Of a stretch of DNA of 64,000 nucleotides, positions 18,580-64,000 are shown one piece after another. The notes beneath the pieces were generated by a model. It saw nothing but the letters and a program-made list of their open reading frames with translations. It did not search any database and was not told where the DNA came from. The position numbers were made by a program, and so were the translations under genes. How positions within the stretch are numbered: position 1 is the stretch's first letter; each line of letters begins with the position of its first letter. Source of the DNA: Mustelus asterias (taxonomy: Eukaryota); contig NW_027590293.1 of the NCBI RefSeq assembly GCF_964213995.1, positions 248,001-312,000 on the forward strand. Direction: 5' to 3'.

Positions 18580-18911
18580 GGAGCTGACAATGATTCTGAA
18601 GGGTTTGCGGATCCACAAAGTGTTTCCAAATCCTCCCAGCCACCGCCTAACGCTGACTCCGCTTCTCCGGGACAAACAAGCGCCAAGGACAGCAATGACA
18701 CTGCGCATGCTCCACATCACAATGCCCGGAGACTGATTGACGGCAGCTCCGGACCAATAGGAAGAGGAGCGGCTGGTCCTCCAACCAATCTGAGTGAATG
18801 AGGGGCGGGACCTGAAGCATGCGCAGTGCGGGGAATGGCGACGGACGGTTTCCTTTATCCAATTCCCGATGGGGAACTTTAGAAAATTGAACAACATCAA
18901 CATCTGTGAGT
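18580..18911 (+). promoter_or_regulatory. ZNF promoter module plus exon-1 splice donor (ACATCT|GTGAGT, ~18905)
   Basis: CCAAT and GC boxes and GCATGCGC. The donor and the following intron start match 53806-53866 on the minus strand. Confidence 0.65.
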
Positions 18912-20932: not shown

Positions 20933-21802
20933 ATGGAGAAACCATGGAAATGTGTGGACTGTGGGAAGGGATACAGAGCCCCATCTAAGCTGGAAGCTCA
21001 TCGGCGCAGCCACACTGGGGAGAGGCCATTCATCTGCTCTCAGTGTGAGAAGGGATTTAATCATTTACCCAGTTTACAGATACACCAGCGAGTTCACATT
21101 GGGGAGAGGCCATTCACCTGCTCTCAATGTGGGAAGGGATTCAGTCAGGTATCTGACCTGCAGAGACACCAGCGAGTTCACACTGGGGAGAGGCCATTCA
21201 CCTGCTCTCAGTGTGGGAAGGGATTCACTCGGTCATCCCACCTGCAGAGACACCAGCGAGTTCACACTGGGGAAAGGCCGTTCACCTGCTCTCAGTGTGG
21301 GAAGGGATTCACTCAGTCATCCACCCTGCGGACACACGAACGGCTTCACACTGGGGAGAGACCGTTCACCTGCTCTCAGTGTGGGCAAGAATTCACTCAG
21401 TCAGCCGACCTGCAGAGACACCAGCTACGTCACACAGGGGAGAGGCCGTTCACCTGCTCTCAGTGTGGGAAGGGATTCACTCTGTTAACCCACCTGCAGA
21501 GACACCAGCGAGTTCACACTGGGGAGAAACCATTCACCTGCTCTCAGTGTGGAAAGGGATTTGCTCAGTCATCTGACTTGCAGACTCACCAGCGAGTCCA
21601 CACTGGGGAGAGGCCGTTCACCTGCTCTCAGTGTGGGAAGGGTTTCAGAGTTTCATCCCGGCTGCTGAGACACCAGCAAGTGCACGAGGGGTTGGATTCT
21701 GCTGTTATTGTTTCTGCTCTCAATTACATCCAGGACTGCATTTTGTTCATTCTCACAGTTGGTCAATGGGAAGGGTCAGAGGGTTTCTTTGTGTTGGACT
21801 AG
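20933..21802 (+). CDS. C2H2 zinc-finger protein, 9 fingers, with a read-through C-terminal extension
   Basis: Starts MEKPWKC. The stop found in paralogs (CATGAG TGA) is deleted, adding GLDSAVIV... Acceptor at ~20582. Confidence 0.9.
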
Positions 21803-23461: not shown

Positions 23462-24625
23462 AATAGAGGGATATGGTCCCCGGAAGGGTAGGGGGTTTTA
23501 GTTCAGACGGGCAGCATGGTTGCTCCAGGCTTGGAGGGCCAAAGGGCTTGTTTCTGTGCTGTAATTTTCTTTGTTCTTCGTTCTGTTTGGAACATCCCAA
23601 ATGCCCATCCAATTTCCTTTTTAATTGTTTATTGTCTCCACTTCCTCCACCCTCATAGGCAGCGAGTTCCAGGTCATTAACATTCGCTGCATCAGAATAT
23701 TCTTCCTCACATCTCCCCCCCCATACCCCTCCATCCCACCCCCCCCCCCCTCCGCCACACCCCCCCTTGCATCCCTGACCCAAAACAAGAAATTTGTGTC
23801 CCCCCTCGTCCTTGTCCCATCAGCTAATGGGAACAGCTTTTCTTTGTCCACCTTATCTAAACCTGTCAGAATCTTGTCCACCTCTATCAAATCTCCCCTC
23901 AACCTCCTTTGTTCCAAGGGGAACAACCCCAGCCAGACATTGACAATAAAGAACAAAGTAACAGAATATGCTCCCCCCTTCCACTTCTTTTCTCATTCTG
24001 GGGGAAATTGGGGACTTGCAGCAACTGAAGGAAAAGGAAGTGAATCCAGTCTGTACATTCCACACATTGTTCGGCCGGTCAGATAGACATGTACCTGTTT
24101 GCCAGCCTGCATGGAGATTTTCAGCTCTCTGTGTCCAGGACAGGAAGGAGGCTTTTGGGATTGAGAGAGGAAAGAATGTTCCATGGAAACTAGAATTGTC
24201 TGTTCTGAATTTCTATCCTCAATTGAAAGTGATGAATTTTGTTAACTCCTTTTACAGGATATCAGAAGGTGAGGATTTTACAGACAGAAATCTCGAATCA
24301 AACATCACGTCCACATCTGACAGAGTCACTCAATTCATCAGGACCTGAATGCTATTGGCCTTTGAACCCAGAAGGAGAAATGTTTCTCTGTTCTGTCTGC
24401 TTTAGCAGTCTTTAAACATCAGTGTGACTGGAACAGGACTGACACACACACACACACACACACACACAATCAACTGAGATTTTCCCGTGCATTGACTGTG
24501 GAAAGAGCTTCCCAGTTACACGGCCGTAAACAATATTGCCCCATCACAGCAGGGCACCATAATATTGTTCTGTGTGAGACTTCAACTGATGGTCAAACCT
24601 GGAGCAACACAAGGATACCTGCACC

Positions 24626-25468
24626 ATGGAGAAACCGTGGAAATGTGGGGACTGTGGGAAGGGTTGCAAAACCCCCTCTGAGCTGCAAACCCATCGACGT
24701 ATTCACACTGGAGAGAAGCCGCACACCTGTTCTGTGTGTGGGAAGGGATTCACTCGGTTATATCATCTGCAGCGACATCGACTGGTTCACACTGGAGAAA
24801 GAGCGTTCATCTGCTTTGAGTGTGGGAACGGATTCGCTCATTTACCCGATCTGCAGAGACACCAGCGCGTTCACACTGGAGAGAGACCATTCATCTGCTT
24901 GGTATGTGGGAAAGGATTTATGCAGTTATCCAATCTGTCAAAACACAAAGTCACTCACAGCAATGAGAAACCCTTTAAATGCTCTGACTGTGGAAGTGGT
25001 TTCAAAAGCTCTCGGGAACTGATGATCCACCAGCGGATTCACACTGGGGAGAGACCGTTCAGCTGCTCTCACTGCACAAAGAGATTTAGAACGTTATCCC
25101 ACCTGCGGGAGCACCAGCGAATTCACACCAGGGAGAGACCGTTCACCTGCTCTGTGTGTGGGAAGGCATTCACTCATTCATCCAGCCTGCTGAGTCACAA
25201 TCTCACTCACACCCAGGAGAGACCCTTTAAATGCTCTGACTGTGGAAGTAGTTTCAAACGTTCTGGGGATCTGGTTATCCACCAGCGCATTCACACTGAG
25301 GAGAGACCGTTCAGCTGCTCTCACTGCACAAAGAGATTTAGAACATCATCCAACCTGCAGGAACACCAGCGAGTTCACACTGGGGAGAGACCGTTCACCT
25401 GCTGTGTGTGTGGGAAGGGATTCACTCAGTCATCCAGCCTGCGGAGACACCAGCAAGTTCACAAGTGA
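24626..25468 (+). CDS. C2H2 zinc-finger protein, 10 fingers
   Basis: 280-aa ORF MEKPWKC...HQQVHK. Acceptor ttttacag|GATATC at ~24258. Confidence 0.9.
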   Translation: MEKPWKCGDCGKGCKTPSELQTHRRIHTGEKPHTCSVCGKGFTRLYHLQRHRLVHTGERAFICFECGNGFAHLPDLQRHQRVHTGERPFICLVCGKGFMQLSNLSKHKVTHSNEKPFKCSDCGSGFKSSRELMIHQRIHTGERPFSCSHCTKRFRTLSHLREHQRIHTRERPFTCSVCGKAFTHSSSLLSHNLTHTQERPFKCSDCGSSFKRSGDLVIHQRIHTEERPFSCSHCTKRFRTSSNLQEHQRVHTGERPFTCCVCGKGFTQSSSLRRHQQVHK

Positions 25469-37369: not shown

Positions 37370-37600
37370 ATGGAGAAACCATGGAAATGTGGAGACTGTG
37401 GGAAGGGATTCAGAGCCCCATCTGAGGTGGAATCTCATCGACGCAGTCACACCGGGGAGAGACCGTTCATATGCTGCACTTGTGGGAAGGGATTCAATCA
37501 TTCATCGAATCTGCTGAGACACCAGCGAATTCACGCTGAGGAGAGGCTAGTCACCTGCTCACAGTGACGGAAGGGATTCAGAGATTCATCCACCCTGCGG
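37370..37600 (+). pseudogene. Truncated ZNF with 2 fingers, then TGA at a cysteine position
   Basis: [10 protein letters not shown]...; the third finger reads CSQ*RKGF and runs into a G-run/(GA)n tract. Confidence 0.8.
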
Positions 37601-37715
37601 GGGAGGGGGGGGGGGGGAAGAGAAGGGAGGGGAAAGAGAAAGATTGAGAGAGAGAGAGAAAGATTGAGAGAGAGAGAAAGATTGAGAGAGAAAGAATCCA
37701 ACCCCTGTAATCGCT

Positions 37716-38560
37716 TGTGAAGTTGTTGGTGTCTCTGCAGGTTGGACGACCGATTAAATCCCTTCCCACACACAGAGCAGGTGAACGGTCTCTCCCTGGT
37801 GTGAACTCGCTGCTGTCTCCGCCGTGTGGATGACCTCCTAAACCTCTTTGAGCAGTGAGAGCAGCTAAACGGTCTCTCGTCAGTGTGAATGGGTTGGTGG
37901 ACCATCAGTTCCCCAGAGCTTTTGAAGCCACTCTCACAGTCAGAGCATTTAAAGGGTCTGTCTTGGGTGTGAGTGACCTTGCGGCTCAACAGGTTGTTCA
38001 ACCGAGTGAATCCCTTCCCACACACAGAGCAGGTGAATGACCTCTCCCCAGTGTGAACTCCCTGGTGTGTTTGTAAATGGGATAACTGAGTGAATCCCTT
38101 CCCACACACACAGCAGGTGAATGTCTCTCTCCAGTGTGACTGCGCCGATGAGTTTCCAGTGCAGATGGGAACCTGAATCCTTTCCCACAGTCCCCACATT
38201 TACACAATTTCTCCATGGTGCGGGTGTCCTTGTGACTCTCCAGGCTTGACAATCAGTTCAGTTACAACATAACATGGGTGCAGTCTCTCTGCCGCAATGT
38301 ATTTTCAGGCTGTTTAACTGGTTAAAGTTCTTTCCACAGTCACTCAGGTGTGAGCATGTTTCAGTGTGTGTGTGTCTCGGTGCTTTTCCAGTCACACTGA
38401 TGTTTAAAATCTCCTGAAGCAGACAGAGCAGAGAAACATTTCCATTCTAGATTCAAAGGTCGATGATATTCAGGTCCCAATGAACTGAGTGACTATGTTA
38501 GATTTTGATGTGAAGTTTGGTTTGATATTCGTCTTTAAATCTTCACCTTCTGATATCCTG
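37716..38560 (-). pseudogene. Frameshifted ZNF pseudogene (~6 fingers)
   Basis: MEKLCKC start, a frameshift in the first linker (~38125) and His losses (LLSRKVTH, RRRQQRVH). Acceptor at ~38557. Confidence 0.8.
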
Positions 38561-38692
38561 CAAAAGGAATTTACAAAAGTCATCAGTGTCAGCACAGGAT
38601 AGAAATTCAGAACAGACAATTCTAATTTCTATGGAGCATTCTTTTCTCTCTCATTCCCCAAAGTCTTCCCCTGGAGTGCAGCCTAAGACACA

Positions 38693-40430
38693 AAACATCG
38701 ATGGTGGAGAACACCCGATATTGCGCAATTTGATTAACCATGTCAGATATGCGGGGAAGGGGGTACGCGTCCAGCTGCCTGTATCGGTTAATGGTCTGAC
38801 TGTAGTCAATGACCATTCGATGTTTCTCCCCAGTTTTAACAACTACTACTTGGGCTCTCCAGGGGCTGGTACTGGCCTCAATGATCCCCTCCCCTAGGAG
38901 CCGTTGCACTTCGGACCTGATAAAAGCTCTGTCTCCAGCACTGTACCGTCTGTTCTTGGTGGCGATGGGCTTGCAATCGGGGGTGAGATTTTCAAACAGT
39001 GAGGGAGGGGCGACTTTAAGGGTCGGGAGGCTGCAGGTGGTGCGCGGTGGGCGATCTAAGAACTGGGGATTGCAAACGGAGAGCGGGGGGAAAGGCCCAT
39101 TCTACTCCATGGTGATGCTCTTAAGGTGACTCAGGAAATCTAGCCCCAGGAGTACGGCAGCGCAGAGTTGTGGCAGCACGAGGAGCCTGAAATTTTTGTG
39201 CACTGTGCCCCGTACAGTCAGGGTCGCCACGCAGTACCCGAGGCCATCCACCGAGTGGGACTTTGAAGTCATGGAGATCGTTTGCTTCACTGGCAGTACT
39301 GAAAGGGTGTAGTGACTCACTGTGTTAGGGTGAATAAAGCTCTCCGTACTCCCACAGTCAAACAAACAGTTTGTAGTGCGACCGTTTACCTCGATGTCCA
39401 TCATGGACCTGGCGAGTTGGTGAGGCCAGGATTGGTCCAGCGTAATCGAAGCCACCGTTGGATTTTGCGAGTAGCCGCACGCGGCTGACGGCGTCCAAGA
39501 TGGCGGCCTGCACAGCCCACACGCGGCTGATGGCGTCCAAAATAGCGGCCCACACGCGGCTGATGGCGTCCAAAATGGCGGCCCGCATGGCTCACACGCG
39601 GCTACTGGCGGCCCCCACGGGTCACACACGGCGCTACTGGGCTTGGAGGTCGATTTTGCTCTGCATACCATCACGTAATGGCCCTTCTTTCCACACCCGG
39701 AGCAGATCGCATCCTTCGCCGAGCTGCATTGTCGGGGGTGCTTCCCCAGGCCGCAGAAGTCGCACTTCGGGCCTCCGGAGACTGCCGCAGCGGTCGGGTC
39801 ATTGGTGGGACGTGGTGTGGTGTAGGCCTGCGGCCCTCCTGAGTACAGAGGTGGCGGCGGCCGCAGTGTCCACGATGCGCCCCCGTGGTCGGGGGTGTAG
39901 GCCTCAAGATTACAGAAGGCCACCTCTAATGAGTCGGCAAGTGCCACAATCTTTTGTAGGTCCAGCCCATCCTGTTCCAGCAGTCGTTGTAGGATATAGT
40001 TTGACCTGATACCTGTGACATAGGCATCTCTGATTAAGTCCTCAGTGTTTTGGGTGGCTGTTACGGCCTTGCAGTTGCAGGCCCTGCCAAGTGCTCGCAA
40101 CGCACGCAGGAATTGATCACCCGATTCTCCTGGCTGTTGTCTGCGAGTAGCCAGAAGATGTCTGGCGTAGATTTCATTAGACTGTTTGTTGTACTGGCCT
40201 TTTAAAAGTTCAATCGCATCCTTGTAAGTTTCAGCGTCTCTAATCATCGCGAATACTTGATCACTTACCCAGGCGTGGAGCACATGTAGCTTGTCGGTTT
40301 CGGTCCGGACGACGGAGGAGGAGGTGAGGAAAGATTTGAAACAGCGCAGCCAGTGATCGAAGCTGAGGGTCCAGTTCGAGTCTGTCAGGTTTTAGTATCT
40401 GCTCCATCCCAAAACATTTGCTCATAAAAT
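38693..40430 (-). mobile_element. Gypsy LTR retrotransposon 5' half: gag, protease and RT N-terminus
   Basis: 393-aa ORF with zinc knuckles (CSGCGKKGHYVMVC) and protease LFDCGS. RT start IIEASTSPWRAQVVVVK...LDAYPLPRI...FSTID, truncated at ~38693. Confidence 0.85.
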
Positions 40431-41369: not shown

Positions 41370-41479
41370 TCCTGTCCTGGACACAGAGAGCTGGAAATCT
41401 CCATGCAGGCTGCCAGACAGATATATGTCTATCTGACTGGACTAACAATGTGTGGAATGTACAGACTGGGGGAACAATG

Positions 41480-41822
41480 GGTGGGGGCGGGGCTCCCGGG
41501 TCCGCGCGCCAGAACACGGAGACGTCACCGTGGAGCAGAGTGATTGCTATTGGCTGATTCAGGCAGGGCTCCATTGTGCCATCACAATGACTCAGAGGGG
41601 CGTTCCCAGCACACAGTGTCCCATTGGCAGCAATATCACTGGTTACAGAAGCAGCACACTGCGGATTGGACACCAGCTCAGTGCGGCTGGCGGTCAAAGC
41701 CCCGCCCACCCCCACGTGGGCTCGGGTTCCGCCCCCTCATTGTCCACATGTGGCAGGTTGACCAATGGCAACGCGTGGAGGACCGAATGGGTGCTGGTCC
41801 TCCAGCCAATCGGAGTCCGGGC
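41480..41822. promoter_or_regulatory. CpG-rich ZNF promoter module, possibly bidirectional
   Basis: GGGGCGGGG, CCAAT/ATTGG and ttccgccccctcatt, shared with the other modules. It sits between a minus-strand ZNF intron remnant and the plus-strand ZNF at 43055. Confidence 0.55.
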
Positions 41823-42015
41823 TTGTTTTTTTTTAATGAATTCAATTTTAATAAATCTCAATACACAAAACTGAATATAAAAAAGTTCAGTTGATTCACA
41901 TTACAAAAGTTCACAAATATGTATGGAAAAAGTCAATCACTCCCAGCTGCTCAACCTTATGAATTGATACATGGCCGCATGGAGCTTCCTCCATTGTTGC
42001 CCAGCAAAATTGCTC

Positions 42016-42046
42016 CTCTCTGAATGAAGATTGAGCTTCAGACAGA
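42016..42046 (+). other. Empty copy of the Tx1 target site / ZNF exon-1 remnant
   Basis: ctctctgaATGaagattgagcttcagacaga. Its last 29 nt are the exact reverse complement of 53890-53918. Confidence 0.85.
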
Positions 42047-43054
42047 TTAATATTGTACTGTAGCTACCTTAGGTATTTCCAGTCATTCATCACTTGCCTA
42101 TTAGAGTCATTAGTGTTTGGATTTCTTCTCCACAGGGATCAGTGGAGGGTGAGGGCCATTGAATATATTCCAGGGTGAGTTAAACTGATTTTTGATTGAT
42201 AAAGGTGTCAAGCGTTATGGGAAACAGGTAGGGAAATGGAGTGAAAGTTAAGATGAGGAGGGATTTCCTCACTCAAGTATGTGGTGTAGTTTTGGAATTA
42301 TGCTACCCCAGAGGACTGTGAAGCCTCAGTCATCGATAAATTTCAAGCCGGAGATTGATAGGTTTTGAGATATTGAAGACATCGAGTGATCTGGGGGATA
42401 GCGTGGGAAATGGTGCTGAGGTAGATCGGCCAATTCTCACTGAATGCTTGTGGCAATTCGATGGGCCGGATAAGCCAACTGTTGCTTCTATTTCTTATGA
42501 TTTCTATGTGCTGGAGTGGAGGCAGTGAGCATGGATCTGTCAATCAGCCTCAATCAGCACCTTCAGGAGAATTGGGAGGGTGGATATTAGATACAGCAGA
42601 GTGAGAATGGAGGGAGAGTGTGTGGGATGGAGATTCACAGCTTTTGGGGAATGAGAGAGGAAAGAATGCTCCATAGAAACTAGAATTGTTTGTTCTGAAT
42701 TTATGTTCTGACACTGATGACTTATGAAAACTCGTTTTACAGGATGCTGAAAGAGGAATCACAGGCAGAAATCTCAAAAGTCACGTCGAGACCTAACAGA
42801 GTCATATTCCTTGGGAGCTGAATATCATTGGCCTTTAAATTTAGAAGGAGAAATGGTTGTCCGGTCTGTTGATTTGAAAAGATTTCAAACATCAGTGTGA
42901 CTGGAAAAGCACCAACAGTGTTCCAGTGCACTGACTAAAGAGCTTTAACCAGTTACACAGCCTGAATAAATATCACACCATTCGCAGCTGGGAGAGACTG
43001 TACCTGTATTCTGTGTGTGGACAAGGCTGCAACTGAGGCAAGATCACCTGCACC

Positions 43055-43981
43055 ATGGAGAAACCATGGAAATGTGTGGACTGTGGGAAGGGATACGGAG
43101 CCCCATCTAAGCTGGAAATTCATCGGCGCAGCCATACTGGGGAGAAGCCATTCATCTGCTCTCAGTGTAAGAAGGGATTTAATCATTTATCCAGCTTACA
43201 GATGCACCAGCGAGTTCACACTGGGGAGAGACCATTCACCTGCTCTCAGTGTGGGGAGGGGTTCATTCAGTCATCCAGCCTGCAGGTACACCAGCGAGTT
43301 CACACTGGAGAGAGGCCGTTCACCTGCTCTCAGTGTGGGGAGGGATTCACTCGGTCAGACCATCTGCAGAGACACCAGCGAGTTCACACTGGGGAGAGGC
43401 CATTCACCTGCTCTCAGTGTGGGAAGGGATTCACTCAGTCATCCCACCTGCAGAGACACCAGCGAATTCACACTGGGGAGAGACCGTTCACCTGCTCTCA
43501 GTGTGGGGAGGGATTTACTCAGTCATCCCACCTGCGGACACACCAGCGAGTTCACACTGGGGAAAGACCGTTCACCTGCTCTCAGTGTGGGGAGGGATTC
43601 ACTCAGTCATCCAACCTGCAGTCACACCAGCGAATTCACACCGGGGAGAGACCATTCACCTGCTCCCAGTGTGGGCAGGAATTCACTCAGTCAGCCGACC
43701 TGCAGAGACACCAGCGACGTCACACAGGGGAGAGGCCGTTCACCTGCTCTCAGTGTGGGAAAGGATTCACTTTGTCAGCCTACCTGCAGAAACACCAGCG
43801 TGTTCACACTGTGGAGAAACCATTCACCTGCTCTCAGTGTGGGAAGGGATTCACTCAGTCATCTGACCTGCGGATACACCAGCGAGTTCACACTGGGGAG
43901 AAACCATTCACCTGCTCTCAGTGTGGGAAGGGATTCACAGTTTCATCCCAGCTGCTGAGACACCAACAAGTTCATGAGTGA
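43055..43981 (+). CDS. C2H2 zinc-finger protein, 11 fingers
   Basis: 308-aa ORF. Third paralog of the 20933 and 33340 genes, with the same leader and 3' flank into CR1. Acceptor at ~42743. Confidence 0.9.
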
Positions 43982-49959: not shown

Positions 49960-50468
49960 GTAGAAAGGATGTGATTGCACTGGAGGGGGTGCAGAGGAGA
50001 TTCACCAGGATGTTGCCTGGGATGGAGCAGCCGAGCTATAAAGAGAGATTAGATAGACTTGGATTGTTTTCTTGAGAGCAGAGAAGGCTGAGGGGGGACA
50101 TGATTGAGGTGTATAAGATTGTGAGGGGTTTGGACAGGGTGGATAGGAAGCAGCTGTTCCCCTTAGTTGAAGGGTCAATAACGAGGGGGCATCATTTTAA
50201 GGTGAGGGGCAGGAGGTTTTGGGGGTTTGAGGAAAAATGTTTTCACCCAGAGGGTGGTGGGAGTCTGGAATTCACTGTCTGGGAGGGCAGTGGAGGCGGG
50301 AAACCTCACAACCTTTAAAAAGCACATGGATGAGCACTTGAATGTTTTGACAGTTCAAACACCATCAGCCAAGTGCTGGAAAATGGATTAGTGTAAATTT
50401 AGTATAGTTTTGTCAGTACAGACCCGATGGGCTGAAAGGCCTCTTCTGTACTGTATGACTCTATGACT
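49960..50468 (+). mobile_element. CR1 LINE 3' fragment converging on a ZNF 3' end
   Basis: IEVYKIVRGLDRVD; its (ctatgact)n tail overlaps the ZNF stop codon. Confidence 0.8.
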
Positions 50469-50970
50469 TGTGAATTCGCTGGTGTTTCTGCAGTCGGGAT
50501 GAATGAGTGAATCCCTTCCCACACACTGTGCAGGTGAATGGCCTCTCCCCAGTGTGAACCCGCTGGTGTGTCCGCAGGCCTGATGGCACACTGAATCCTT
50601 TCCCACACACAGAGCAGGAGAACGGCCTCTCCCCAGTGTGAACTTGCTGGTGTCGCCACAGGCTTGATGGCACACTGAATCCTTTCCCACACACAGAGCA
50701 GATGAATGGTCTCTCCCCAGTGTGAACTCGCTGGTGTCTCCGCAGGGTGGATAACTGAGTGAATCCTTTCCCACACACAGAGCAAGTGAACGATTTCTCC
50801 CTGGTGTGAATTCGCTGATGCCTCTGCAAATCAATTATCTGAGTGAATCCCTTCCCACACACAGAGCAGGTGAACGGCCTCTCCCCAGTGTGACTGCGCC
50901 GATGAATCTCCAGCTGAGATGGGAAACTGAATCCTTTCCCACAGTCCCCACATTTCCACGGTTTCTCCAT
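50461..50970 (-). CDS. C2H2 zinc-finger protein, 6 fingers (host gene of the Tx1 insertion)
   Basis: MEKPWKC...; paralog of 7-828 with the same first two and last fingers. Acceptor tttgcag|GATAAC at 51320. Confidence 0.88.
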   Translation of the reverse strand: MEKPWKCGDCGKGFSFPSQLEIHRRSHTGERPFTCSVCGKGFTQIIDLQRHQRIHTREKSFTCSVCGKGFTQLSTLRRHQRVHTGERPFICSVCGKGFSVPSSLWRHQQVHTGERPFSCSVCGKGFSVPSGLRTHQRVHTGERPFTCTVCGKGFTHSSRLQKHQRIHKS

Positions 50971-51811
50971 GGTGCGGGTGTCCTTGTCACTCTCCAGGTT
51001 AAACAATCAGTTAAATCTCACACAGAACACGGATACAGTCTCTCCCCGCTGTGAATGCTGCGATGTATTTTCAGGCGGTGGAACTGGTGAAAGCTCTTTC
51101 CACACTCAGTGCATTGGAACACTCTCACTCGGGTGTATCTGTGTCTTGGTGCTTTTTCAGTCACATTTATGTCAAAAAAATTCTGAAGCAGACAGAACAG
51201 AAAAAGATTTCTCCTTCTAGATTCAATGATATTCAGATCCCGATCAATCAAATGACTGTCAGATTTAGATGTGACATTTGGTTTGAGATTTCTGCCTGTA
51301 AATCCTCACCTTCTGTTATCCTGCAAAAGCAGATTACAAAAGTCATCACTGTCAGTACAGGATAGAAATTCAGAACGACATTTCCTTGTTTTAAGTTCAT
51401 TCATTAGTCACAAGTAAGGCTTACATTAACACTGCAATGAAGTCACTGTGAAATTCCGCTAGTTGCAGCAGTCGGGCGCCTGTTGGGAACAATGCATCGA
51501 ACCAGCACGTCTTTCAGAATTCTAGTTTCTATGGAAACTTCTTTCCTCTCTCATTCCCCAAAAGCTGTGACTCTCCATCCCACACACTCTCCCTCCATTC
51601 TCACTCTGCTGTATCTAATATTCATCCTCCCAATTCTCCTGAAGGTGCTGATTGAGGCTGGTTGACAGATCCATGCTCACTGCTTCCTGTCCTGGACACA
51701 GAGAGCTGGAAATCTCCATGCAGGCTGCCAGACAGATATATGTCTATCTGACTGGACTAACAATGTGTGGAATGTACAGACTGGACTCACTCGCTTTCCC
51801 TTCAGTGGCTA

Positions 51812-53650: not shown

Positions 53651-53859
53651 TCAGTTCCTGCAAGACAACAATTTCCCCAGAAAGTGTTACATTTGGACAT
53701 AAATGAGTAGACTAATGTGTGAATACACTGGTTAGAGAGACATGAAGAATGCGAGGAGGATTTTTATTTCGGCAGCGAGTGGTGACCTGGAAGTTAAAAA
53801 TTCAACTCCAGAATAAGAGAAGAAATGGAAAGGGGGAGAAAAGAAAGTGTTTTACTCAC

Positions 53860-53918
53860 AGATGTTGGAGAGACAGAAGGAAGTTTGAGTCTGTCTGAAG
53901 CTCAATCTTCATTCAGAG
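53860..53918 (-). other. Putative ZNF exon 1 (MKIELQTDSNFLLSLQH, phase-2 donor) containing the target-site duplication
   Basis: ATG at 53912-53910, then 17 codons plus 2 nt, then GTGAGT. The intron start matches 18906-18955 and 23971-24000. Confidence 0.6.
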
Positions 53919-54046
53919 ACCTCTTTTTAGGTCAAACCAAGTAAACAAACTCAAATTAAATCAGGACAAAGTAAAAGGGGCAGCTCCCCAAAAAGGAGGG
54001 GGAACAGCCCGAACAGAAATCAAAATGCAAAGGAAACTTAAAAACA

Positions 54047-57000
54047 TCAAATTAAAATGTGATTATTAGGGTCAATAATGCACCCCAACCCCTGCGGTGC
54101 CCAGCGGGCGCGGAAAGCGTCAACCTCGCCCGTGGACACCGCATGCTCCCTCTCCAGGGACACCTGGCCGCGAACGTAGCCGCGGTAGAGGGGAAGACAG
54201 TCAGGATGGACGGCCCCCTCGATCGCCCGCTGCCTGGACCGGTAAATGGCGCGTTTCGCCAGGCCCAGGAGCAGGTTCACGAGGAGGTCGCCATCCCGAC
54301 CCTCCCCTCTCCGCACCGGGTGTCCGTAGATCAGGAGCGTGGGACTGAAGTGCAAACAAAACATCAATAAAAGATTCTTCAGGAAAACATAAAGGGAGTG
54401 CAGCCTAAGACACTCAACATAGACATGGTCCACGGACTCCACAAGGCCACAGAAAGGGCAGTCTTCGGAGCCCGTGAACCAGTGAATCCTACGGTTGTGC
54501 GGAACTGCTGCATGCATCACCCTCCACCCCAGGTCCCCGACGTAATTGGGGGAGATCCCTCCGTAGAGGGACCTCCAGCGGGGACCTCCGCCGCCCGGCG
54601 GCAACAAGGCCCGCCAAGGTGTATCCGGGCGACAGGCGAGGAGGCGGTAGTGGAAGGTGTGCAGCAGCAGCCCGCACAGGAAACGCCTCCGCGCGGTAGA
54701 AAAAGGCACGGAGGGCATTTCCGCGAGGCGGCTCAGGCTGTGGGGCACCTCACCCAGGGGAGGGGGCTGAGGCTTTGGGCCAATGTGGAATTCCGCCCGA
54801 ACAGGGGAACGCTCGGGCGGGATCCCACCGCACGCCTGTGCCGTCTCAAGTTTGCGTGCAGTTTCGGGGCCGAGCACGACCGTCCTAAGGTCTAGGATGG
54901 CTTTGGCCGCGCGCCGGACGGACGTCCCCGCGCGCTCAGCCAGCACGCGGGGACTCATCCAGCCCGCTCCTCCGCCATCGAGCACGTCCCCGATTCTGGT
55001 CACCCCGGCGTCCACAGCCCCCCTCTCCGCCAGCCACCTGAAGTTATACGGCTGGAGGAGCGGATTCCTGAGCAGCGGCTCTCGCACGAGAGCCGCTACT
55101 CCTGACGGGGGAGAGCTGCGTCGCGAGGCGACCTTGTTCCAGACAGTGAGGAGGTCCTGGTAAAAGACGGGCAACTCCTGCAGGGTGGTCGAAGCACGCC
55201 CCAGTTCGATATGCAGGAGCTGCACGTCATAATTGAGGCCGTGCCACTGGCGGAAGAAATACGTCGCCATGGCACACCACTGTGGAGGGGGCTCAACGTA
55301 AAGGTACCTCTGCAGGGCCTGGAGGCGGAAGGTCGCTATCTGAGTGCGGAGGCACACCAGACCTTGTCCGCCCTCCTCAAGCGGGAGATACAGGACCGCA
55401 GCAGGGACCCAGTGCAGTCGATTGCCCCAGAAGAACCGCACGAGGGTTCTCTGGATATCGGTGACAAAGCCAGGGGGAGGGGTCAAAGGGACCAGCCGGT
55501 ACCACAGCATGGAGGCGACCAGCTGGTTTATGACGCGAGCTCGCGCCCCGTAGGACAGCACTCGGAGCAGTCCTGTCCAGCGACCCAGGCGGGCGGAGAC
55601 TTTGGCCTCCAGCTCCCGCCAGTTCGCCGGCCAGGATTCCTCGGCTGGGCAGAGATGGGCCCCCAAGTAGAGGAGGTCGGTCCTGCTCCAGGTGAAAGGC
55701 CTGAGCTCCTCCGGAAGGGGGTCCGTCTCCCAAGGACCGACAAGGAGTCCGGAGCACTTGGCCCAGTTGATCCTGGCGGAGGACGCGGCGGAGTACACCG
55801 CCTGGCATTCTCGCATCCTCCGCAGGTCAGCCGGGTCCGTGAACATGAGGAGCACGTCGTCGGCGTAAGCTGACAGGACCACCCCTACGTCCGGTCCGCG
55901 CAGGACCAAACCTGACAACCTCCTCCGCAAGAGGCGCAGGAATGGCTCCACGCATACGGAATACAGTTGGCCGGACAAGGGGCAGCCCTGCCGTACTCCT
56001 CTCCCGAAGCGAAGGGGCGCCGTCAGGGACCCGTTAACCTTAATCACACACTCTGCGGCAGAGTACAGTAATCGGATCCGGGCGACAAAATGCGTCCCGA
56101 ACCCGAATGCCCGCAGAGTCCCGAGTAAATACTCGTGCTCCACCCTGTCGAACGCCTTCTCCTGATCTAATGACAAGAAGGCGCCCGACAGACCAGCCCT
56201 CTGGGTGTGATGGATTAGGTCCCAGACCAGGTGGAGATTGTCATGTATGCAACGGCCCGGGACCGTGTAGGACTGGTCAGGGTGGATCAAGTGGTCCAGC
56301 ACGGATCCAAGGCGTGAAGCCATAGCCCTGGCAAAGATTTTATAATCCGTGCTGAGGAGGGAGACCGGGCGCCAGTTCTTGAGCAGGTGGAGATCCCCCT
56401 TCTTGGGCAGCAGGGCAATGACGGCCCTGCGCCACGAAAGGGGCATCTCCCCGGTAGCGACGCTCTCCCCCAGGACCCCCGCGTAGTCGCTCCCCAGGAC
56501 GTCCCAGAACGCCCTGAAGAACTCTACTGTCAGCCCGTCCAGCCCAGGGGCCTTGCCCCGGCTGAGGCCATTTAGGGCGCCGGTCAGCTCGGCCATGGTG
56601 GTAGGGGCCTCGAGCCTGCCGACGCCCTCCGGGCCGACCTGCGGCAGGTCCTCCCACAGAAGTCTGCGGGCATCCTCGCTGGACGGATCCGGAGAGAAGA
56701 GCGAGGTGTAATACTCCCGGGCAATGGCCCGGATGCCCTCCGGATCCGAGACGGGGGAACCGTCGTCGGCCAGCAGCGTAAGGAGCTGCTGACGGTTAGC
56801 CCGCCCTCTTTCCAGCGAGTAGAAGAAGGGGGAGCCGCGGTCCAGGTCCACCTGGAACTGGAGCCGCGACCTCACGTACGCGCCGCGAGACCTGGCAAGC
56901 TGCAGGTCCCGCAGCGCGTCCTTCTTCTCCCTGTACTCCGAACGCAGGGCCGGGTCCGCGTCAGGCCGACTGAGACGTGCCTCCAGGTCGAGCACCTCCT

Positions 57001-57940
57001 TCTCCAACTCCTCGAGCCTGGATTTCCGCCTCTTTGTCGACCCCCTCGCGTACCCCTGACAGAAGGTACGGACGTGAGTCTTGCCCACATCCCACCAGAG
57101 CCTCAAGGAGGGGAAGCCTCCCCGCTTCCTTCTCCAGCCGGCCCAGAATCGACGGAACGAGTCCAGGAAGCGCTCGTCCTCCAGCAGCGTGTTGTTAAAG
57201 TGCCAGTACGCGGACCCCCGCCGGATGCGAGACGGCGCAAAGTCCGCCCACACCAGGCTGTGGTCCGTGCTCGACACCGGCCGCATGGAGACCGAGGACA
57301 CGCCGGACACGTGCGCCTTCGAAATGTAAAGGCGGTCGAGCCTGGACGCTCCGACTCCAGGCCTCACGAAAGTGAAGGCGCTGGAGCCAGGATGGAGATG
57401 TCTCCAGACGTCCACCAAGTCGTGAGACCCGATCAGGTCCCGCAACTTCACCACCGCCGGAGTGCGCAGCCAGGGGCCGGTGCGGTCCCGTGCCTCGAGG
57501 ATGCAGTTGAAATCTCCCCCGAGGATAATGCATTCGCCCCCCGCGATGGTGTCGATGTGAGCGGACACTTTCTCGTAGAAAGTCGTTTGCTGCGGTCCAG
57601 CGGTCGGGGCGTAGACATTCAGCAAGTGAATGACCACGCCCCCCTCACGGACCGTCAAGTGCAGCAACCGGCCTGGCACCGGCTCCTTGACCCCCAAGAT
57701 CTCCGGCTTATAACGCGGGGCCAACAAGATAGCCACCCCGCAAGAAGCGAGCGTGAGGTGGCTCATGTAGACCCCCCCTCGCCACTCCAGGAGCCATTGG
57801 GCTTCGTCTCCCGGAACGGTGTGGGTTTCCTGCAGGAAACACACCGCATACTTCCCGTCACGGAGGACCGAGAAGTTCTGGAACCTGCGGTGTGGCCCAC
57901 TGCTGCCGTTGATGTTGAGGCTGGCTATGGTCACCTTCAT
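54047..57940 (-). CDS. Tx1 ORF2: APE endonuclease, reverse transcriptase and C-terminal Cys/His finger
   Basis: SLNING, LQETH, GGDFN, SRLDR, TDH (APE); NWRPVSLL, LDQEKAFD, GVRQGCPLS, YADD (RT); CPFC-x7-H-x4-C. 1297 aa uninterrupted. Confidence 0.95.
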   Translation of the reverse strand: MKVTIASLNINGSSGPHRRFQNFSVLRDGKYAVCFLQETHTVPGDEAQWLLEWRGGVYMSHLTLASCGVAILLAPRYKPEILGVKEPVPGRLLHLTVREGGVVIHLLNVYAPTAGPQQTTFYEKVSAHIDTIAGGECIILGGDFNCILEARDRTGPWLRTPAVVKLRDLIGSHDLVDVWRHLHPGSSAFTFVRPGVGASRLDRLYISKAHVSGVSSVSMRPVSSTDHSLVWADFAPSRIRRGSAYWHFNNTLLEDERFLDSFRRFWAGWRRKRGGFPSLRLWWDVGKTHVRTFCQGYARGSTKRRKSRLEELEKEVLDLEARLSRPDADPALRSEYREKKDALRDLQLARSRGAYVRSRLQFQVDLDRGSPFFYSLERGRANRQQLLTLLADDGSPVSDPEGIRAIAREYYTSLFSPDPSSEDARRLLWEDLPQVGPEGVGRLEAPTTMAELTGALNGLSRGKAPGLDGLTVEFFRAFWDVLGSDYAGVLGESVATGEMPLSWRRAVIALLPKKGDLHLLKNWRPVSLLSTDYKIFARAMASRLGSVLDHLIHPDQSYTVPGRCIHDNLHLVWDLIHHTQRAGLSGAFLSLDQEKAFDRVEHEYLLGTLRAFGFGTHFVARIRLLYSAAECVIKVNGSLTAPLRFGRGVRQGCPLSGQLYSVCVEPFLRLLRRRLSGLVLRGPDVGVVLSAYADDVLLMFTDPADLRRMRECQAVYSAASSARINWAKCSGLLVGPWETDPLPEELRPFTWSRTDLLYLGAHLCPAEESWPANWRELEAKVSARLGRWTGLLRVLSYGARARVINQLVASMLWYRLVPLTPPPGFVTDIQRTLVRFFWGNRLHWVPAAVLYLPLEEGGQGLVCLRTQIATFRLQALQRYLYVEPPPQWCAMATYFFRQWHGLNYDVQLLHIELGRASTTLQELPVFYQDLLTVWNKVASRRSSPPSGVAALVREPLLRNPLLQPYNFRWLAERGAVDAGVTRIGDVLDGGGAGWMSPRVLAERAGTSVRRAAKAILDLRTVVLGPETARKLETAQACGGIPPERSPVRAEFHIGPKPQPPPLGEVPHSLSRLAEMPSVPFSTARRRFLCGLLLHTFHYRLLACRPDTPWRALLPPGGGGPRWRSLYGGISPNYVGDLGWRVMHAAVPHNRRIHWFTGSEDCPFCGLVESVDHVYVECLRLHSLYVFLKNLLLMFCLHFSPTLLIYGHPVRRGEGRDGDLLVNLLLGLAKRAIYRSRQRAIEGAVHPDCLPLYRGYVRGQVSLEREHAVSTGEVDAFRARWAPQGLGCIIDPNNHILI

Positions 57941-57968
57941 GTCAGCAGCTTTGTGCCACCGTCACCAC

Positions 57969-60068
57969 TTAACTAGGTGTGTGGGGGGGCGCTGGCGCAA
58001 TTCTCACCAGTCCACCCCCCACCTTTTCGAGCCTGTGGAGGAACCGCAGTACCCAGCGCCGCTCTATTTTCTCCAGGCCCGCGGAGGCATGCGAGCATGC
58101 CTTCACGGACCGGACGAGCTGCGCCAGGTCCGGCCAGCGGCCGAGGGCTAGCCGGATTATGTCGGAGCGACCGGAATGGTTACGGATAAAGACCCTGAGG
58201 TCCTTGGAGGGGATGAGGGACGACTCGGTGGGGGGCACGAGGGAGTCCCCCGCCTCGCTCTGGGCAGACTCTGAAAGTGTCCCCGTGCCCTCCACCGAGC
58301 CGCTGACCTCCTCAGGGCGGTCGCCCCTCGACTCCGAGTCCCCCGCCGCAGGACGTACGGCGGGCGGCACGGAGCCACCAACTAGCCCTAGCCCCTCCCC
58401 GATCCCACCCCCAGGATCGGTGGAGGAGGGGTTCCCCCCGGGCTCACCTTTCCCGGATTGCGGGCCCCCGTGCGACGGCGGCCCAGCCCCCCCCCCCGCC
58501 CCAGACGCTTGGACACCCCCCAGGTCCGGTGTATCCTTCGGACTGAGGTTGGGGATGTCCAGCGTCCAAGGTCGGGACGGAGAGGACGAGTGGATCGTCT
58601 CTTCGCCGCCGCCGCACGAGGACATGAACATTGGAGTGTCGCCCCAGTCCCCCGACAGACTGAAGAAGAACTCCGGGTTGTAACCGGCCGGGTGGAACGG
58701 AACCGTGGGGGCCCCGCTGCCAACCGGCCCCGGAGACTCCTCGCCGGGGGACTGAGGCAACACATGCTTGGATTTACAGGGTGCCTTGCCCCCTTTTTTC
58801 TGGGGACAAGGCACAAAGACAGGTGGGGGCACGGCAGGAGATGACTCACAAGGGGGGAGGGGCACGCAGACCTCGAACTCTACGGTGCCCGAGGGGCCCC
58901 GCCTCTTTTTGTTAACCTGCCCTCGGGCAGGCGAGGCCCCTCGCCCTCCGCCCCTCTTCGCCTTGCCGCGCCCCCCCTGCTCTCCCGTCACTTCCCCCCG
59001 AGGTGGCGGCGTCGCCAGTTTTGCCGGCTCGGGGTCGCTTACCCCCCCATGCTCGGGCCCATGATCCCGGGCGCCGGACCCAGCACTAGGCCCCGGAGAG
59101 CCCACGGGCCCGGCAGATGGTGGTGGTGGTGGTGGGGGGGGGGCGCAGGTGGAGACTGAGGCGGTCCCCGAGCCGGCTGCCGGGGTGGTCGGGGTGTTTT
59201 CCCTGGGGGCCGGGGTTCCGGTACCCCCCTTCTTTTTTGTAGGTCCCTTATGGGCCTTTTGGCCGCGCGGGGGCTCCGCTCCCCCCCCGCCGGCAGCTGA
59301 GGTGGCAGCTGCTGCCGGCGTGGCCTCCCCTCGCGGGGGAGCAGATGGTACTCGCTTGGGGGGAGAGGGGGCTGCGGTGCCAGCTGCGGCCGCCTTGGGT
59401 TGGTGGTCGGCGGCCTTGGAGACGGGGCAGTTTTTCCGCACGTGCCCCGCCTCCTTACAGGCATGGCACCGCACACCGTCCGCGGACCAAAAGACCCGGT
59501 ACGTGGTCCCCTCGTGGGGGACATTGAACCCTCCCTCCAGTTCCTCCTCCCGGGCCAGGCGGACAAAAACCTGGCGCCGGAAGGAGTATATGTGGCGGAG
59601 GGAGGGGTCCCGAAGGCCGAGCGGGATCGGCTGCACCCCGGACCTGACCTCCCCCAGTAGATGGAGGTGGGGGAGGAGGAGCTCACTCGGTAGGAAGGGC
59701 GGGACGTTCGATATTACTATCTTGTGGGCGGTGGCCTCCAATGGGTCCACCGCCAGGAACGTCCCGCCCACCGTGAGCCCCCTCTCCAGGGCGAGGCGAA
59801 CCGCCCGCTCGGCCTTCAGGAAGAATACGGCCCGGCCGGACATCTTTGAGGCCGCGACAATGGCTGAGGGGCCGACAACCCCAGCCATTGCCTTGACGCA
59901 GGCCTCGATAGACATGTCGGGGTGGGCGTAGCACTTCACCCCGAGCTGCCGCGTGATTAAAGAGAATGGCGGCAGGGCCTTGGGAGCGGCGGGGGCTCTG
60001 GCAGCCGCCACGCCCGCATAGGTGGGCCGAGAAGGCCCTGCCACCGGCGACGCTGGTGATGTCGCCAT
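57969..60068 (-). CDS. Tx1 ORF1: RNA-binding domain with a CCHC knuckle and a long Pro/Gly-rich tail
   Basis: From the in-frame ATG (MATSPAS...): IVAASKM..RAVFFL, KIVISNVPPF, SFRRQVFV and CHACKEAGHVRKNC, typical of Tx1 ORF1. 699 aa. Confidence 0.88.
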   Translation of the reverse strand: MATSPASPVAGPSRPTYAGVAAARAPAAPKALPPFSLITRQLGVKCYAHPDMSIEACVKAMAGVVGPSAIVAASKMSGRAVFFLKAERAVRLALERGLTVGGTFLAVDPLEATAHKIVISNVPPFLPSELLLPHLHLLGEVRSGVQPIPLGLRDPSLRHIYSFRRQVFVRLAREEELEGGFNVPHEGTTYRVFWSADGVRCHACKEAGHVRKNCPVSKAADHQPKAAAAGTAAPSPPKRVPSAPPRGEATPAAAATSAAGGGGAEPPRGQKAHKGPTKKKGGTGTPAPRENTPTTPAAGSGTASVSTCAPPPPPPPPSAGPVGSPGPSAGSGARDHGPEHGGVSDPEPAKLATPPPRGEVTGEQGGRGKAKRGGGRGASPARGQVNKKRRGPSGTVEFEVCVPLPPCESSPAVPPPVFVPCPQKKGGKAPCKSKHVLPQSPGEESPGPVGSGAPTVPFHPAGYNPEFFFSLSGDWGDTPMFMSSCGGGEETIHSSSPSRPWTLDIPNLSPKDTPDLGGVQASGAGGGAGPPSHGGPQSGKGEPGGNPSSTDPGGGIGEGLGLVGGSVPPAVRPAAGDSESRGDRPEEVSGSVEGTGTLSESAQSEAGDSLVPPTESSLIPSKDLRVFIRNHSGRSDIIRLALGRWPDLAQLVRSVKACSHASAGLEKIERRWVLRFLHRLEKVGGGLVRIAPAPPHTPS

Positions 60069-60459
60069 GGTATCAGGGGAAGTGCTACACCCACCCCGAG
60101 ACTGCCCAGATGCACGGCAGGGCGTATATGTGGAGGGAAAGATAAGGGAGGGTGGGGTAGGTGGGTAGGGGTGTAGGTGTTCTCTCCCCGGAGCGAGAGA
60201 GGGAGAGAGGAGGTCGGAGCAGTAGGAGGGAGAACGAGGCACAAGGCCGGTGCCCCAGTCAGGAGGGAAAGGGGAGGGGGTGCACCAATCGTGGGGACAG
60301 CAGCAGTGGGTAGGGGAATTAGGAAAAAGGTCTTCACCCCCCCCCACTGCAGATGGAAAAGAGACAGTCCAAACGCCTTCGCCCCCCCCTCTCCTCCAGT
60401 CACTCCCTGTCCTCTCTTCCTCCCTCCCCCCGGGGAGAGCGCAACCTCCAGAGGCCGGA

Positions 60460-61265
60460 TGGCAGGCATGCAGGCAGTCAGGCAGTCCAGACGGCAGGCA
60501 GGCCGGACGGCAAGCAGGCAGGCAGGTAGTCCAGACGGCAGGCAGCCCAGACGGCAGGCAGGTAGTCCAGACAGCAGGCAGGCAGGTAAGCAGGCCAGAC
60601 GGCAGGCAGGCAGGTAAGCAGGCCAGACGGCAGGCAGGCAGGTAAGCAGGCCAGACGGCAGGCAGGTAAGCAGGCCAGACGGCAGGCAGGCAGGTAAGCA
60701 GGCCAGACGGCAGGCAGGCAGGTAAGCAGGCCAGACGGCAGGCAGGCAGGTAAGCAGGCCAGACGGCAGGCAGGCAGGTAAGCAGGCCAGACGGCAGGCA
60801 GGCAGGTAAGCAGGCCAGACGGCAGGCAGGTAAGCAGGCCAGACGGCAGGCAGGCAGGTAAGCAGGCCAGACGGCAGGCGGGCAGGTAAGCAGGCCAGAC
60901 GGCAGGCGGGCAGGTAAGCAGGCCAGACGGCAGGCAGGCAGGTAAGCAGGCCAGACGGCAGGCAGGCAGGTAAGCAGGCCAGACGGCAGGCAGGCAGGTA
61001 AGCAGGCCAGACGGCAGGCAGGCAGGTAAGCAGGCCAGACGGCAGGCAGGCAGGTAAGCAGGCCAGACGGCAGGCAGGCAGGTAAGCAGGCCAGACGGCA
61101 GGCAGGCAGGTAAGCAGGCCAGACGGCAGGCAGGCAGGTAAGCAGGCCAGACGGCAGGCAGGCAGGTAAGCAGACCAGACGGCAGGCAGGCAGGTAAGCA
61201 GGCCAGACGGCAGGCAGGCAGGTAAGCAGGCCAGACGGCAGGCAGGCAGGCAACAGGCAGGCCGG
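60460..61265. repeat. 28-bp tandem repeat array in the Tx1 5' UTR (~25 units)
   Basis: Unit ggcaggcaggcaggtaagcaggccagac, with occasional 24-bp variants and degenerate ends. Confidence 0.95.
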
Positions 61266-61570
61266 GCAAGGCAGGCAGCAGCTCACCTCCCTCCTTCCTC
61301 CCCGCAGGGAGCGAAAAACAAACAAACCCAACAAAACAAAAACAAAAACCGGGCGTCTCCGTGAGCAAAAACGAGAGAAAAAAAATAAAATAAAGGTACT
61401 CACAAAAAAAGAAAAGAAAACAAACCCACAGTTTCCGCCCGGCTCCGACCCGGGGCCCCCCGCTACTCGGGCGAACGTGAACTCACCCCACCCCGGAAAC
61501 AAAGTGCAGGCGCTGCCCCAGAGGAGGGACGTTTCAGGCCGCCTGAAGCTCAATCTTCATTCAGAGAGAG

Positions 61571-64000
61571 ACCTCTTTTTAGGTCAAACCAAGTAAACAA
61601 ACTCAAATTAAATCAGGACAAAGTAAAAGGGGCAGCTCCCCAAAAAGGAGGGGGAACAGCCCGAACAGAAATCAAAATGCAAAGGAAACTTAAAAAAAAC
61701 ATCAAATTAAAATGTGGTTATTAGGGTCAATAATGCACCCCAACCCCTGCGGTGCCCAGCGGGCGCGGAAAGCGTCAGCCTCGCCCGTGGACACCGCATG
61801 CTCCCTCTCCAGGGACACCTGGCCGCGAACGTAGCCGCGGTAGAGGGGAAGACAGTCAGGATGGACGGCCCCCTCGATCGCCCGCTGCCTGGACCGGTAA
61901 ATGGCGCGTTTTGCCAGGCCCAGGAGCAGGTTCACGAGGAGGTCGCCATCCCGACCCTCCCCTCTCCGCACCGGGTGTCCGTAGATCAGGAGCGTGGGAC
62001 TGAAGTGCAAACAAAACATCAATAAAAGGTTCTTCAGGAAAACATAAAGGGAGTGCAGCCTAAGACACTCAACATAGACATGGTCCACGGACTCCACAAG
62101 GCCACAGAAAGGGCAGTCTTCGGAGCCCGTGAACCAGTGAATCCTACGGTTGTGCGGAACTGCTGCATGCATCACCCTCCACCCCAGGTCCCCGACGTAA
62201 TTGGGGGAGATCCCTCCGTAGAGGGACCTCCAGCGGGGACCTCCGCCGCCCGGCGGCAACAAGGCCCGCCAAGGTGTATCCGGGCGACAGGCGAGGAGGC
62301 GGTAGTGGAAGGTGTGCAGCAGCAGCCCGCACAGGAAACGCCTCCGCGCGGTAGAAAAAGGCACGGAGGGCATTTCCGCGAGGCGGCTCAGGCTGTGGGG
62401 CACCTCACCCAGGGGAGGGGGCTGAGGCTTTGGGCCAATGTGGAATTCCGCCCGAACAGGGGAACGCTCGGGCGGGATCCCACCGCACGCCTGCGCCGTC
62501 TCAAGTTTGCGTGCAGTTTCGGGGCCGAGCACGACCGTCCTAAGGTCTAGGATGGCTTTGGCCGCGCGCCGGACGGACGTCCCCGCGCGCTCAGCCAGCA
62601 CGCGGGGACTCATCCAGCCCGCTCCTCCGCCATCGAGCACGTCCCCGATTCTGGTCACCCCGGCGTCCACAGCCCCCCTCTCCGCCAGCCACCTGAAGTT
62701 ATACGGCTGGAGGAGCGGATTCCTGAGCAGCGGCTCTCGCACGAGAGCCGCTACTCCTGACGGGGGAGAGCTGCGTCGCGAGGCGACCTTGTTCCAGACA
62801 GTGAGGAGGTCCTGGTAAAAGACGGGCAACTCCTGCAGGGTGGTCGAAGCACGCCCCAGTTCGATATGCAGGAGCTGCACGTCATAATTGAGGCCGTGCC
62901 ACTGGCGGAAGAAATACGTCGCCATGGCACACCACTGTGGAGGGGGCTCAACGTAAAGGTACCTCTGCAGGGCCTGGAGGCGGAAGGTCGCTATCTGAGT
63001 GCGGAGGCACACCAGACCTTGTCCGCCCTCCTCAAGCGGGAGATACAGGACCGCAGCAGGGACCCAGTGCAGTCGATTGTCTCAGAAGAACCGCACGAGG
63101 GTTCTCTGGATATCGGTGACAAAGCCAGGGGGAGGGGTCAAAGGGACCAGCCGGTACCACAGCATGGAGGCGACCAGCTGGTTTATGACGCGAGCTCGCG
63201 CCCCGTAGGACAGCACTCGGAGCAGTCCTGTCCAGCGACTCAGGCGGGCGGAGACTTTGGCCTCCAGCTCCCGCCAGTTGGCCGGCCAGGATTCCTCGGC
63301 TGGGCAGAGATGGGCCCCCAAGTAGAGGAGGTCGGTCCTGCTCCAGGTGAAAGGCCTGAGCTCCTCCGGGAGGGGGTCCGTCTCCCAAGGACCGACAAGG
63401 AGTCCGGAGCACTTGGCCCAGTTGATCCTGGCGGAGGACGCGGCGGAGTACACCGCCTGGCATTCTCGCATCCTCCGCAGGTCAGCCGGGTCCGTGAACA
63501 TGAGGAGCACGTCGTCGGCGTAAGCTGACAGGACCACCCCTACGTCCGGTCCGCGCAGGACCAAACCTGACAACCTCCTCCGCAAGAGGCGCAGGAATGG
63601 CTCCACGCATACGGAATACAGTTGGCCGGACAAGGGGCAGCCCTGCCGTACTCCTCTCCCGAAGCGAAGGGGCGCCGTCAGGGACCCGTTAACCTTAATC
63701 AGACACTCTGCGGCAGAGTACAGTAATCGGATCCGGGCGACAAAATGCGTCCCGAACCCGAATGCCCGCAGAGTCCCGAGTAAATACTCGTGCTCCACCC
63801 TGTCAAACGCCTTCTCCTGATCTAATGACAAGAAGGCGCCCGACAGACCAGCCCTCTGGGTGTGATGGATTAGGTCCCGGACCAGGTGGAGATTGTCATG
63901 TATGCAACGGCCCGGGACCGTGTAGGACTGGTCAGGGTGGATCAAGTGGTCCAGCACGGATCCAAGGCGTGAAGCCATAGCCCTGGCAAAGATTTTATAA
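61571..64000 (-). mobile_element. Tx1 copy 2 (3' part; runs beyond the window), ORF2 broken by a nonsense codon
   Basis: Near-identical to 53919-56345. TGG>TGA at 63082-63084 splits ORF2 into the 63082-63978 and 61702-63012 ORFs. Confidence 0.93.

Follow-up and report, generated by a model that had tools for sequence, protein, structure and literature searches.

A short motif that carries two tandem copies of a Tx1-type LINE in the genome of the shark Mustelus asterias is probably host sequence belonging to the 5' exon of a C2H2 zinc-finger (ZNF) gene unit, and the same motif stands unoccupied upstream of a second, paralogous ZNF. Both lie in a 64,000-nt stretch of contig NW_027590293.1 (hereafter the window, whose numbering we use throughout and on whose sequence the findings rest), in which finger arrays define a cluster of 10 C2H2-ZNF units among LINE, SINE and LTR fragments. 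The unoccupied copy (42017..42046, +) consists of the 25 nt of the target-site duplication (42017-42041) and 5 nt of host flank, and is identical at 30 of 30 positions to 53890-53919 (-), the host DNA just 3' of an intact Tx1-type LINE. A preliminary description of this DNA had already recognized the identity, which stands, and had put its length at 29 nt, which is one too few. Locally, the empty site speaks well for a Tx1 array lying within a 5' exon that is repeated among ZNF units, and it is a poor guide to the bases that preceded the nick; by itself it is supporting evidence rather than the discovery.

A scan allowing up to three mismatches found the 21-nt core of the motif three times in the window, exact in every case (42021-42041 +, 53895-53915 - and 61543-61563 -), and 100 shuffles gave no match. 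Exact agreement of the empty copy with 61543-61568 (-), where one Tx1 copy meets the other, covers 26 nt (42016-42041). The next-best ungapped match to the 30-mer carries 10 mismatches, and the expectation for it under a Markov model of the 53.8 kb of non-Tx1 sequence is about 3e-12. In this repeat-rich window 4581 of 53771 host 30-mers (8.5%) have an exact twin; hence, a twin as such is not rare, and it is the position of the motif that carries the argument. Homology of the empty copy to the filled flank stops after ACAGA (42046), as described before, and none is seen 5' of 42016. BLASTN of the Tx1 sequence against 1-53800 returned a sole match of 29 nt (38673-38701) and nothing near the empty site, in agreement with the earlier statement that Tx1 is absent from its vicinity. 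We rejected the idea that 42017 is a 30-nt truncated copy of the element's own 3' end, as the identity reaches 5 nt into the host flank and no tail is present. A hairpin or palindrome signal was likewise rejected: the motif forms an imperfect palindrome whose folding is no better than that of shuffles (z -0.58). A minisatellite at 15938-16298 (38-nt unit, 9.5 copies) contains 11 nt of the motif (TGAATGAAGAT); another, at 2348-2610, has three copies of a 91-nt unit.

Read along the minus strand, the filled locus comprises the 3' part of Tx1 copy 2, the motif, the full-length copy 1 (53920..61542, -), the motif again and then host sequence. The 3' copy of the 25-nt target-site duplication (53895..53919, -) directly follows copy 1, while the 5' copy (61543..61567, -) lies between copy 2 and copy 1 and is preceded by four extra TC letters. 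Both copies of the duplication are thus present at a fixed position, as in target-specific Tx1 families. The right edge of the duplication is sharp and the left falls at a short TC run, which is 4 nt longer after copy 2; the run at the nick has 2-4 units, and 20 runs of (TC)4+ in the host part of the window carry no such element. Copy 2 (61572..64000, -), which runs off the window, differs from copy 1 by 13 substitutions in 2298 coding nt, of which seven are synonymous and six are not, one giving a stop. A neutral in-place duplication would be expected to show about 4.2 synonymous changes, and the excess (7 of 13, P=0.09) is not significant. The two copies sit at the same nucleotide, and they also differ in the T run and in the TC count at the junction. 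On these sequence features, independent insertions of the two copies are favoured over an in-place tandem duplication. The motif is present at both visible 3' junctions (2/2), which belong to one locus. If copy 1 is the younger, it entered the duplication behind copy 2, with a Tx1 tail upstream; from this we infer that recognition would be mainly by the bases 3' of the nick, every one of which the empty site keeps.

Copy 1 encodes two stop-free frames, ORF1 (60068-57969, 699 aa) and ORF2 (57940-54047, 1297 aa). Elements of the Tx1 clade have a separate ORF1 with a CCHC knuckle; the zf-CCHC domain of ORF1 here scores 18 bits, below the cut-off of 20.8. In ORF2 the APE endonuclease (PF03372) and the reverse transcriptase (RT; PF00078) are above cut-off and a C-terminal zf-RVT is below it (E 0.003), so that the order of N-terminal APE endonuclease, RT and C-terminal zinc-finger-like domain is that of the Tx1 clade with a sub-threshold last member. 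The best PDB match of the endonuclease is 2v0r, an L1 endonuclease bearing the Tx1L loop (PMC1950540), at 70.9 versus 68.5 bits for L1, a margin of 2.4 bits. The name "Tx1" did not occur among the 20 of 150 protein matches that were looked up; the nearest named relatives are proteins of horn shark, whale shark and sea turtle (sea turtle 44-66% where named). C2H2 fingers were found in none of 161 Tx1-related proteins. The label, a presumptive one, rests on the preliminary description, the architecture and the loop match in PDB, and we speak of a Tx1-type element. Its 5' region holds 28 copies of a 28-nt repeat (60498-61278) in a stop-free frame running into ORF1. In the horn shark Heterodontus francisci, one gene model (XP_067877586.1) fuses a 64%-identical half of a Tx1 ORF2 to a long Ser-Leu-Pro repeat.

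We compared the ZNF units by BLAST over eight modules and observed a common order, in which a CCAAT promoter is followed by the motif, the end of the exon, a GTGAGT donor with its pyrimidine tract, a pair of intron modules, the acceptor and exon 2. The unit with the Tx1 array retains everything from the motif onward, namely the rest of the putative first exon (53860..53894, -), the GTGAGT donor with the pyrimidine-rich intron start (53808..53859, -), and exon 2 with its C2H2 ORF (50458..51320, -; acceptor 51320). Sequence 3' of the filled motif recurs free of Tx1 upstream of two other ZNFs, with the donor at 18898-19005 (+) and donorless at 23971-24049 (+): the unit at 18717-21802 has the promoter and, with the donor, the final 9 bases of the exon, and that at 23971-25468 begins inside the intron. 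The empty unit has the promoter and the motif, after which homology resumes at 42503 with the conserved intron module I3 and splice acceptor (42503..42742, +; acceptor 42742|42743), followed by an ORF with 10 C2H2 fingers (43037..43981, +). Between its motif and the acceptor are 697 nt, and a CCAAT box in the CpG-rich stretch 41480-41822 lies 206 nt ahead of the motif; this confirms the placement given earlier. For a motif between promoter and intron module in the expected orientation, the prior was 1.3% under a strict, post hoc definition and 19% under a loose one. Counting against the explanation we prefer, the motif is kept in two of the 10 units and so is the donor. The preliminary description had taken the motif for host ZNF-unit sequence in the same relative orientation at both sites; identity 5 nt past the duplication, the module order and the phase match given below together argue that this is probably correct.

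At the filled site the frame from the ATG at 53912 to the GTGAGT donor spans 17 codons and 2 nt without a stop, i.e. phase 2. In the majority columns of nine exon-2 starts, 130 nt separate the acceptor from the first decayed finger, and the sole stop-free frame is again phase 2; a basking shark protein is annotated in the matching exon-2 frame. Such a match would arise by chance at about 15% by our own estimate (1/3 x 0.44), and taken individually three of the nine exon-2 starts keep the phase to the first Cys codon while six are frame-shifted. The arrangement of promoter, motif and a donor compatible with the exon-2 acceptor was found at the filled site only, the homologous donor being absent from the empty one, where the ATG at 42024 opens MKIELQTD and reaches a stop after 8 codons. 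These features suggest that the motif is probably the 5' part of a decayed first exon of a shark C2H2-ZNF unit. Our reading is of an ancestral first coding exon that would now be transcribed as a 5' leader, because the annotated-type ORF starts later, at MEKPWKC. The sequencing runs listed came from relatives only, with a best share of words of 0.36, and were left out of the evidence. The ORF leaders at 42743-43055, 50973-51320 and the equivalent exon-2 starts consist of decayed fingers and linker with many stops, and the ORFs restart at MEKPWKC. The nearest named relatives of one ZNF are from sawshark and basking shark, and protein searches with the exon-2 linker revealed no relative with an upstream exon.

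The two motif-bearing units are more alike in their modules (I3 172/185, 93%; motif 30/30) than in their coding sequence (313/397, 79%), and this higher non-coding identity suggests gene conversion or selection as judged from the alignments. Elsewhere, an intron module of two ZNF units is identical at 100 of 100 nt (41370-41469 versus 51685-51784), as are 80 of 80 nt of 18574-18653 and 10690-10769. An LTR retrotransposon with gag-protease and RT-start frames (38622-40391, -; Pfam gag-asp_proteas) interrupts a ZNF unit that has decayed (37531-38557), within its intron. In the unit 18717-21802 the place of the motif-bearing exon is occupied by a 60-nt patch (18846-18905, +) that is 91% identical to LINE-like 19214-19277 and abuts, through a microhomology junction, the final 9 bases of the exon and the donor; it looks as if a break at the target had been mended by templated repair.

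The empty copy is a mosaic remnant. Upstream of it lies a CpG-rich, promoter-like and probably divergent region (41480..41822; 63% GC), with a CpG o/e of 0.62 versus 0.38 in the host part of the window, in which 41776-41816 matches the CCAAT module of the other ZNF promoters. The AT-rich block that follows (41826..41965, -) looks foreign; its minus strand ends in ATTAAA and an A run, as a polyadenylated insert might, and no flanking duplication was found for it. No part of 41826-42016 has a BLAST match within the window. A processed pseudogene at 41826-42068 is a possible reading that gained no support: its four short frames have no Pfam match, two of them have no PDB match, and there is no flanking duplication. 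The unit being a mosaic, the 5' flank ATTGCTCC may or may not be ancestral and can stand only as a candidate pre-insertion context; its earlier designation as the likely context was a slight over-reading.

Within the candidate segment itself (41966..42016, +) there is one lead. Positions 42011-42031 match 10008-10028 at 18 of 21 nt, and the longer comparison of 42011-42039 with 10008-10050, a promoter module with a AAGATGGCGGCC box, adds 8 of 8 after a 14-nt gap. Its score of 38 compares with a maximum of 34 in 40 window-wide shuffles and was equalled by one of 400 promoter-only shuffles. For three reasons we take the similarity no further than a lead: the gap scoring was set once the match had been seen, the ungapped version is one of four nominal matches among 80 comparisons, and the match is orientated opposite to the CCAAT module. 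The AAGATGGCGGCC box is presumably YY1-like; modules with such a box are found at 10016-10090 (+), 10757-10837 (-) and 1950-2020 (+), and two of them face each other around the CCAAT block 10297-10466. On the 3' side, the claim that the exon copy had lost its donor is right for the homologous donor. That the copy is non-exonic need not follow, given a GTGAGT in LINE-like sequence 129 nt downstream of the motif (42175..42180, +), a possible replacement donor that is itself at chance level (0.36 expected in that interval).

The explanation that we consider fairly probable is that a Tx1-type LINE nicks a motif of the ZNF first exon, that the 25-nt duplication rebuilds the site so that copies stack, and that 42017 is an unoccupied paralogous remnant of it. 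The ancestral unit would have comprised the CCAAT promoter, the motif with its ATG, about 35 further exon bases, the GTGAGT donor, intron modules, acceptor and exon 2. The endonuclease, reading the motif, would nick the bottom strand at a fixed point, the motif's start at the short TC run; reverse transcription would be primed at the nick, with TC microhomology aiding it, and a top-strand cut 25 nt further on would yield the duplication, the steps past the duplication itself being modelled on target-primed reverse transcription of APE LINEs. As each insertion would restore the target, copies would pile up in head-to-tail arrays (53920-64000+), parting the ZNF promoter from its gene. The copy at 42017 would belong to a paralogue from which the remainder of the exon, the donor and half of the intron have disappeared, and may still be usable as a target. 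The window has a single filled locus, which counts against this explanation, and a motif in two of 10 units of one window is too little to establish recurrent targeting across the genome. More tentatively, and with rather less confidence than we would need to assert it, the element could represent a young, intact shark Tx1-type family with sequence specificity for tandem C2H2-ZNF genes, a gene class credited with repressing retroelements, at the part of their first exon that spans the ancestral start codon, stacking there and separating promoter from gene; the frequent loss of precisely this stretch of exon, in eight of the 10 paralogous units, could then reflect cutting damage or selection for escape.

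The presence of one locus with copies 99% identical, and the non-significant synonymous excess, would suit an element without true specificity: a single chance insertion into host ZNF sequence, perhaps favoured by the TC run or open promoter chromatin, followed by a tandem pair formed through unequal crossing-over between the 25-nt duplications or through segmental duplication. A preference for (TC)n or (TTC)n is described for some families of the Tx1 clade (PMC4494074), and the Ser-Leu-rich repeat joined to the Tx1 half in the horn shark model is what a TC-rich tract would encode. We regard this alternative as unlikely, in that the longer TC runs of the window are unoccupied, the two copies differ at 13 sites, in the T run and in the junction TC count, and the horn shark model is possibly a spliced chimera.

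Two further alternatives concern the nature of the motif and of its empty copy. The motif and intron modules might be a non-autonomous transposon or homogenised cassette travelling with the ZNF units and itself the target of Tx1; the greater likeness of modules than of coding sequence and the imperfect palindrome are compatible with this, and insertion into DNA transposons occurs commonly in this clade (e.g. Tx1L into Tx1D and Tx1-Mar into Mariner-N4). Every module match, however, lies in sense orientation upstream of a ZNF acceptor or ZNF remnant, terminal repeats were not seen, folding does not exceed shuffles, and the ATG-donor phase suits ZNF exon 2, making this quite improbable. Alternatively, the 30-mer at 42017 might be a patch copied from the other locus, whether in the course of templated repair, by micro gene conversion or as a tiny insertion of Tx1 read-through, in which case it would be uninformative about the ancestral 5' context. 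Its perfect identity, its abrupt ends on both sides and its beginning at the nick position would fit, and the patch at 18846-18905 provides a precedent at the same exon elsewhere. The start at the nick is, however, forced by the comparison with a filled site, the position of 42017 agrees with the module order, other isolated exact module remnants exist (33-34 nt at 40955), and neither a tail nor a duplication surrounds the 30-mer; we give this possibility very little credence.

If the specificity is true, the element would be a Tx1-type LINE targeting a protein-coding multigene family, a class not found in the literature searched. Such a ZNF-aimed LINE would either have found a novel type of safe haven or be intervening directly in the conflict between transposable elements and ZNFs, for which repression of retroelements by ZNFs in zebrafish is a described case (PMC10547256), and it would add a natural sequence-specific APE endonuclease. 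The intact ORF2, the defined 25-nt duplication and the nearby empty site make nicking readily testable. In the literature searched we found no Tx1 family targeting ZNF genes, and a named family may exist. The motif sequence was likewise absent from the literature searched. The core and donor motifs had 0 matches in metagenome, viral and prokaryote collections, and the Tx1 loci had none in outside collections, plasmids included, as expected for a vertebrate. Tx1-like repeats have been noted in the whale shark, with no target given in the accessible text (PMC8455134). Among shark tandem C2H2-ZNFs, Cetorhinus maximus LOC144697525 and a ZFP2-like protein of Pristiophorus japonicus share the exon-2 linker frame or the MEKPWKC start, and their protein records differ in having no upstream exon peptide.

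Judged from this one locus, the element works like a target-specific Tx1. Like Tx1L of Xenopus laevis, which targets Tx1D, it is a two-ORF APE-type LINE with a fixed insertion point in a multicopy sequence, and its endonuclease loop FTFVRPGVGASRLDRL, though 3 residues shorter, can be aligned with the grafted Tx1L loop of PDB 2v0r. The Tx1L target is a DNA transposon, whereas the putative target here, with specificity still a candidate property, is a host gene exon; the Tx1L endonuclease is reported to read about 10 bp around the bottom-strand cut (PMC1919474). It also resembles Keno, Tx1-Mar, Kibi, Koshi and other target-specific Tx1 families in the clade-typical preference for repeated targets, which in the accessible text of PMC4494074 include Tx1D, U2 and U5 snRNA, 5S rRNA, microsatellites, satellites, Mariner, Harbinger and LTR elements, a family there counting as target-specific when more than 20% of flanks carry the target. 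As regards a microsatellite target of the Kibi or Koshi type, the nick lies at a TC run of 2-4 units, and 20 runs of (TC)4+ elsewhere are unoccupied. A structured RNA target was rejected, as Rfam gave no match at gathering or E-value thresholds: for snRNA, rRNA and tRNA genes there were 0 matches at gathering score in the window, and around the three motif sites only sub-threshold ones. Non-LTR elements more generally also target spliced leader exons, tRNA genes and telomeres (PMC4640811; PMC6719617; PMC8869645). The elements that target spliced-leader exons, rRNA and tRNA (PMC4640811) share with the present one the safe-haven logic of a redundant multicopy gene; their targets are non-coding RNA genes or repeats, whereas the target here would be the putative 5' exon of a divergent protein-coding family.
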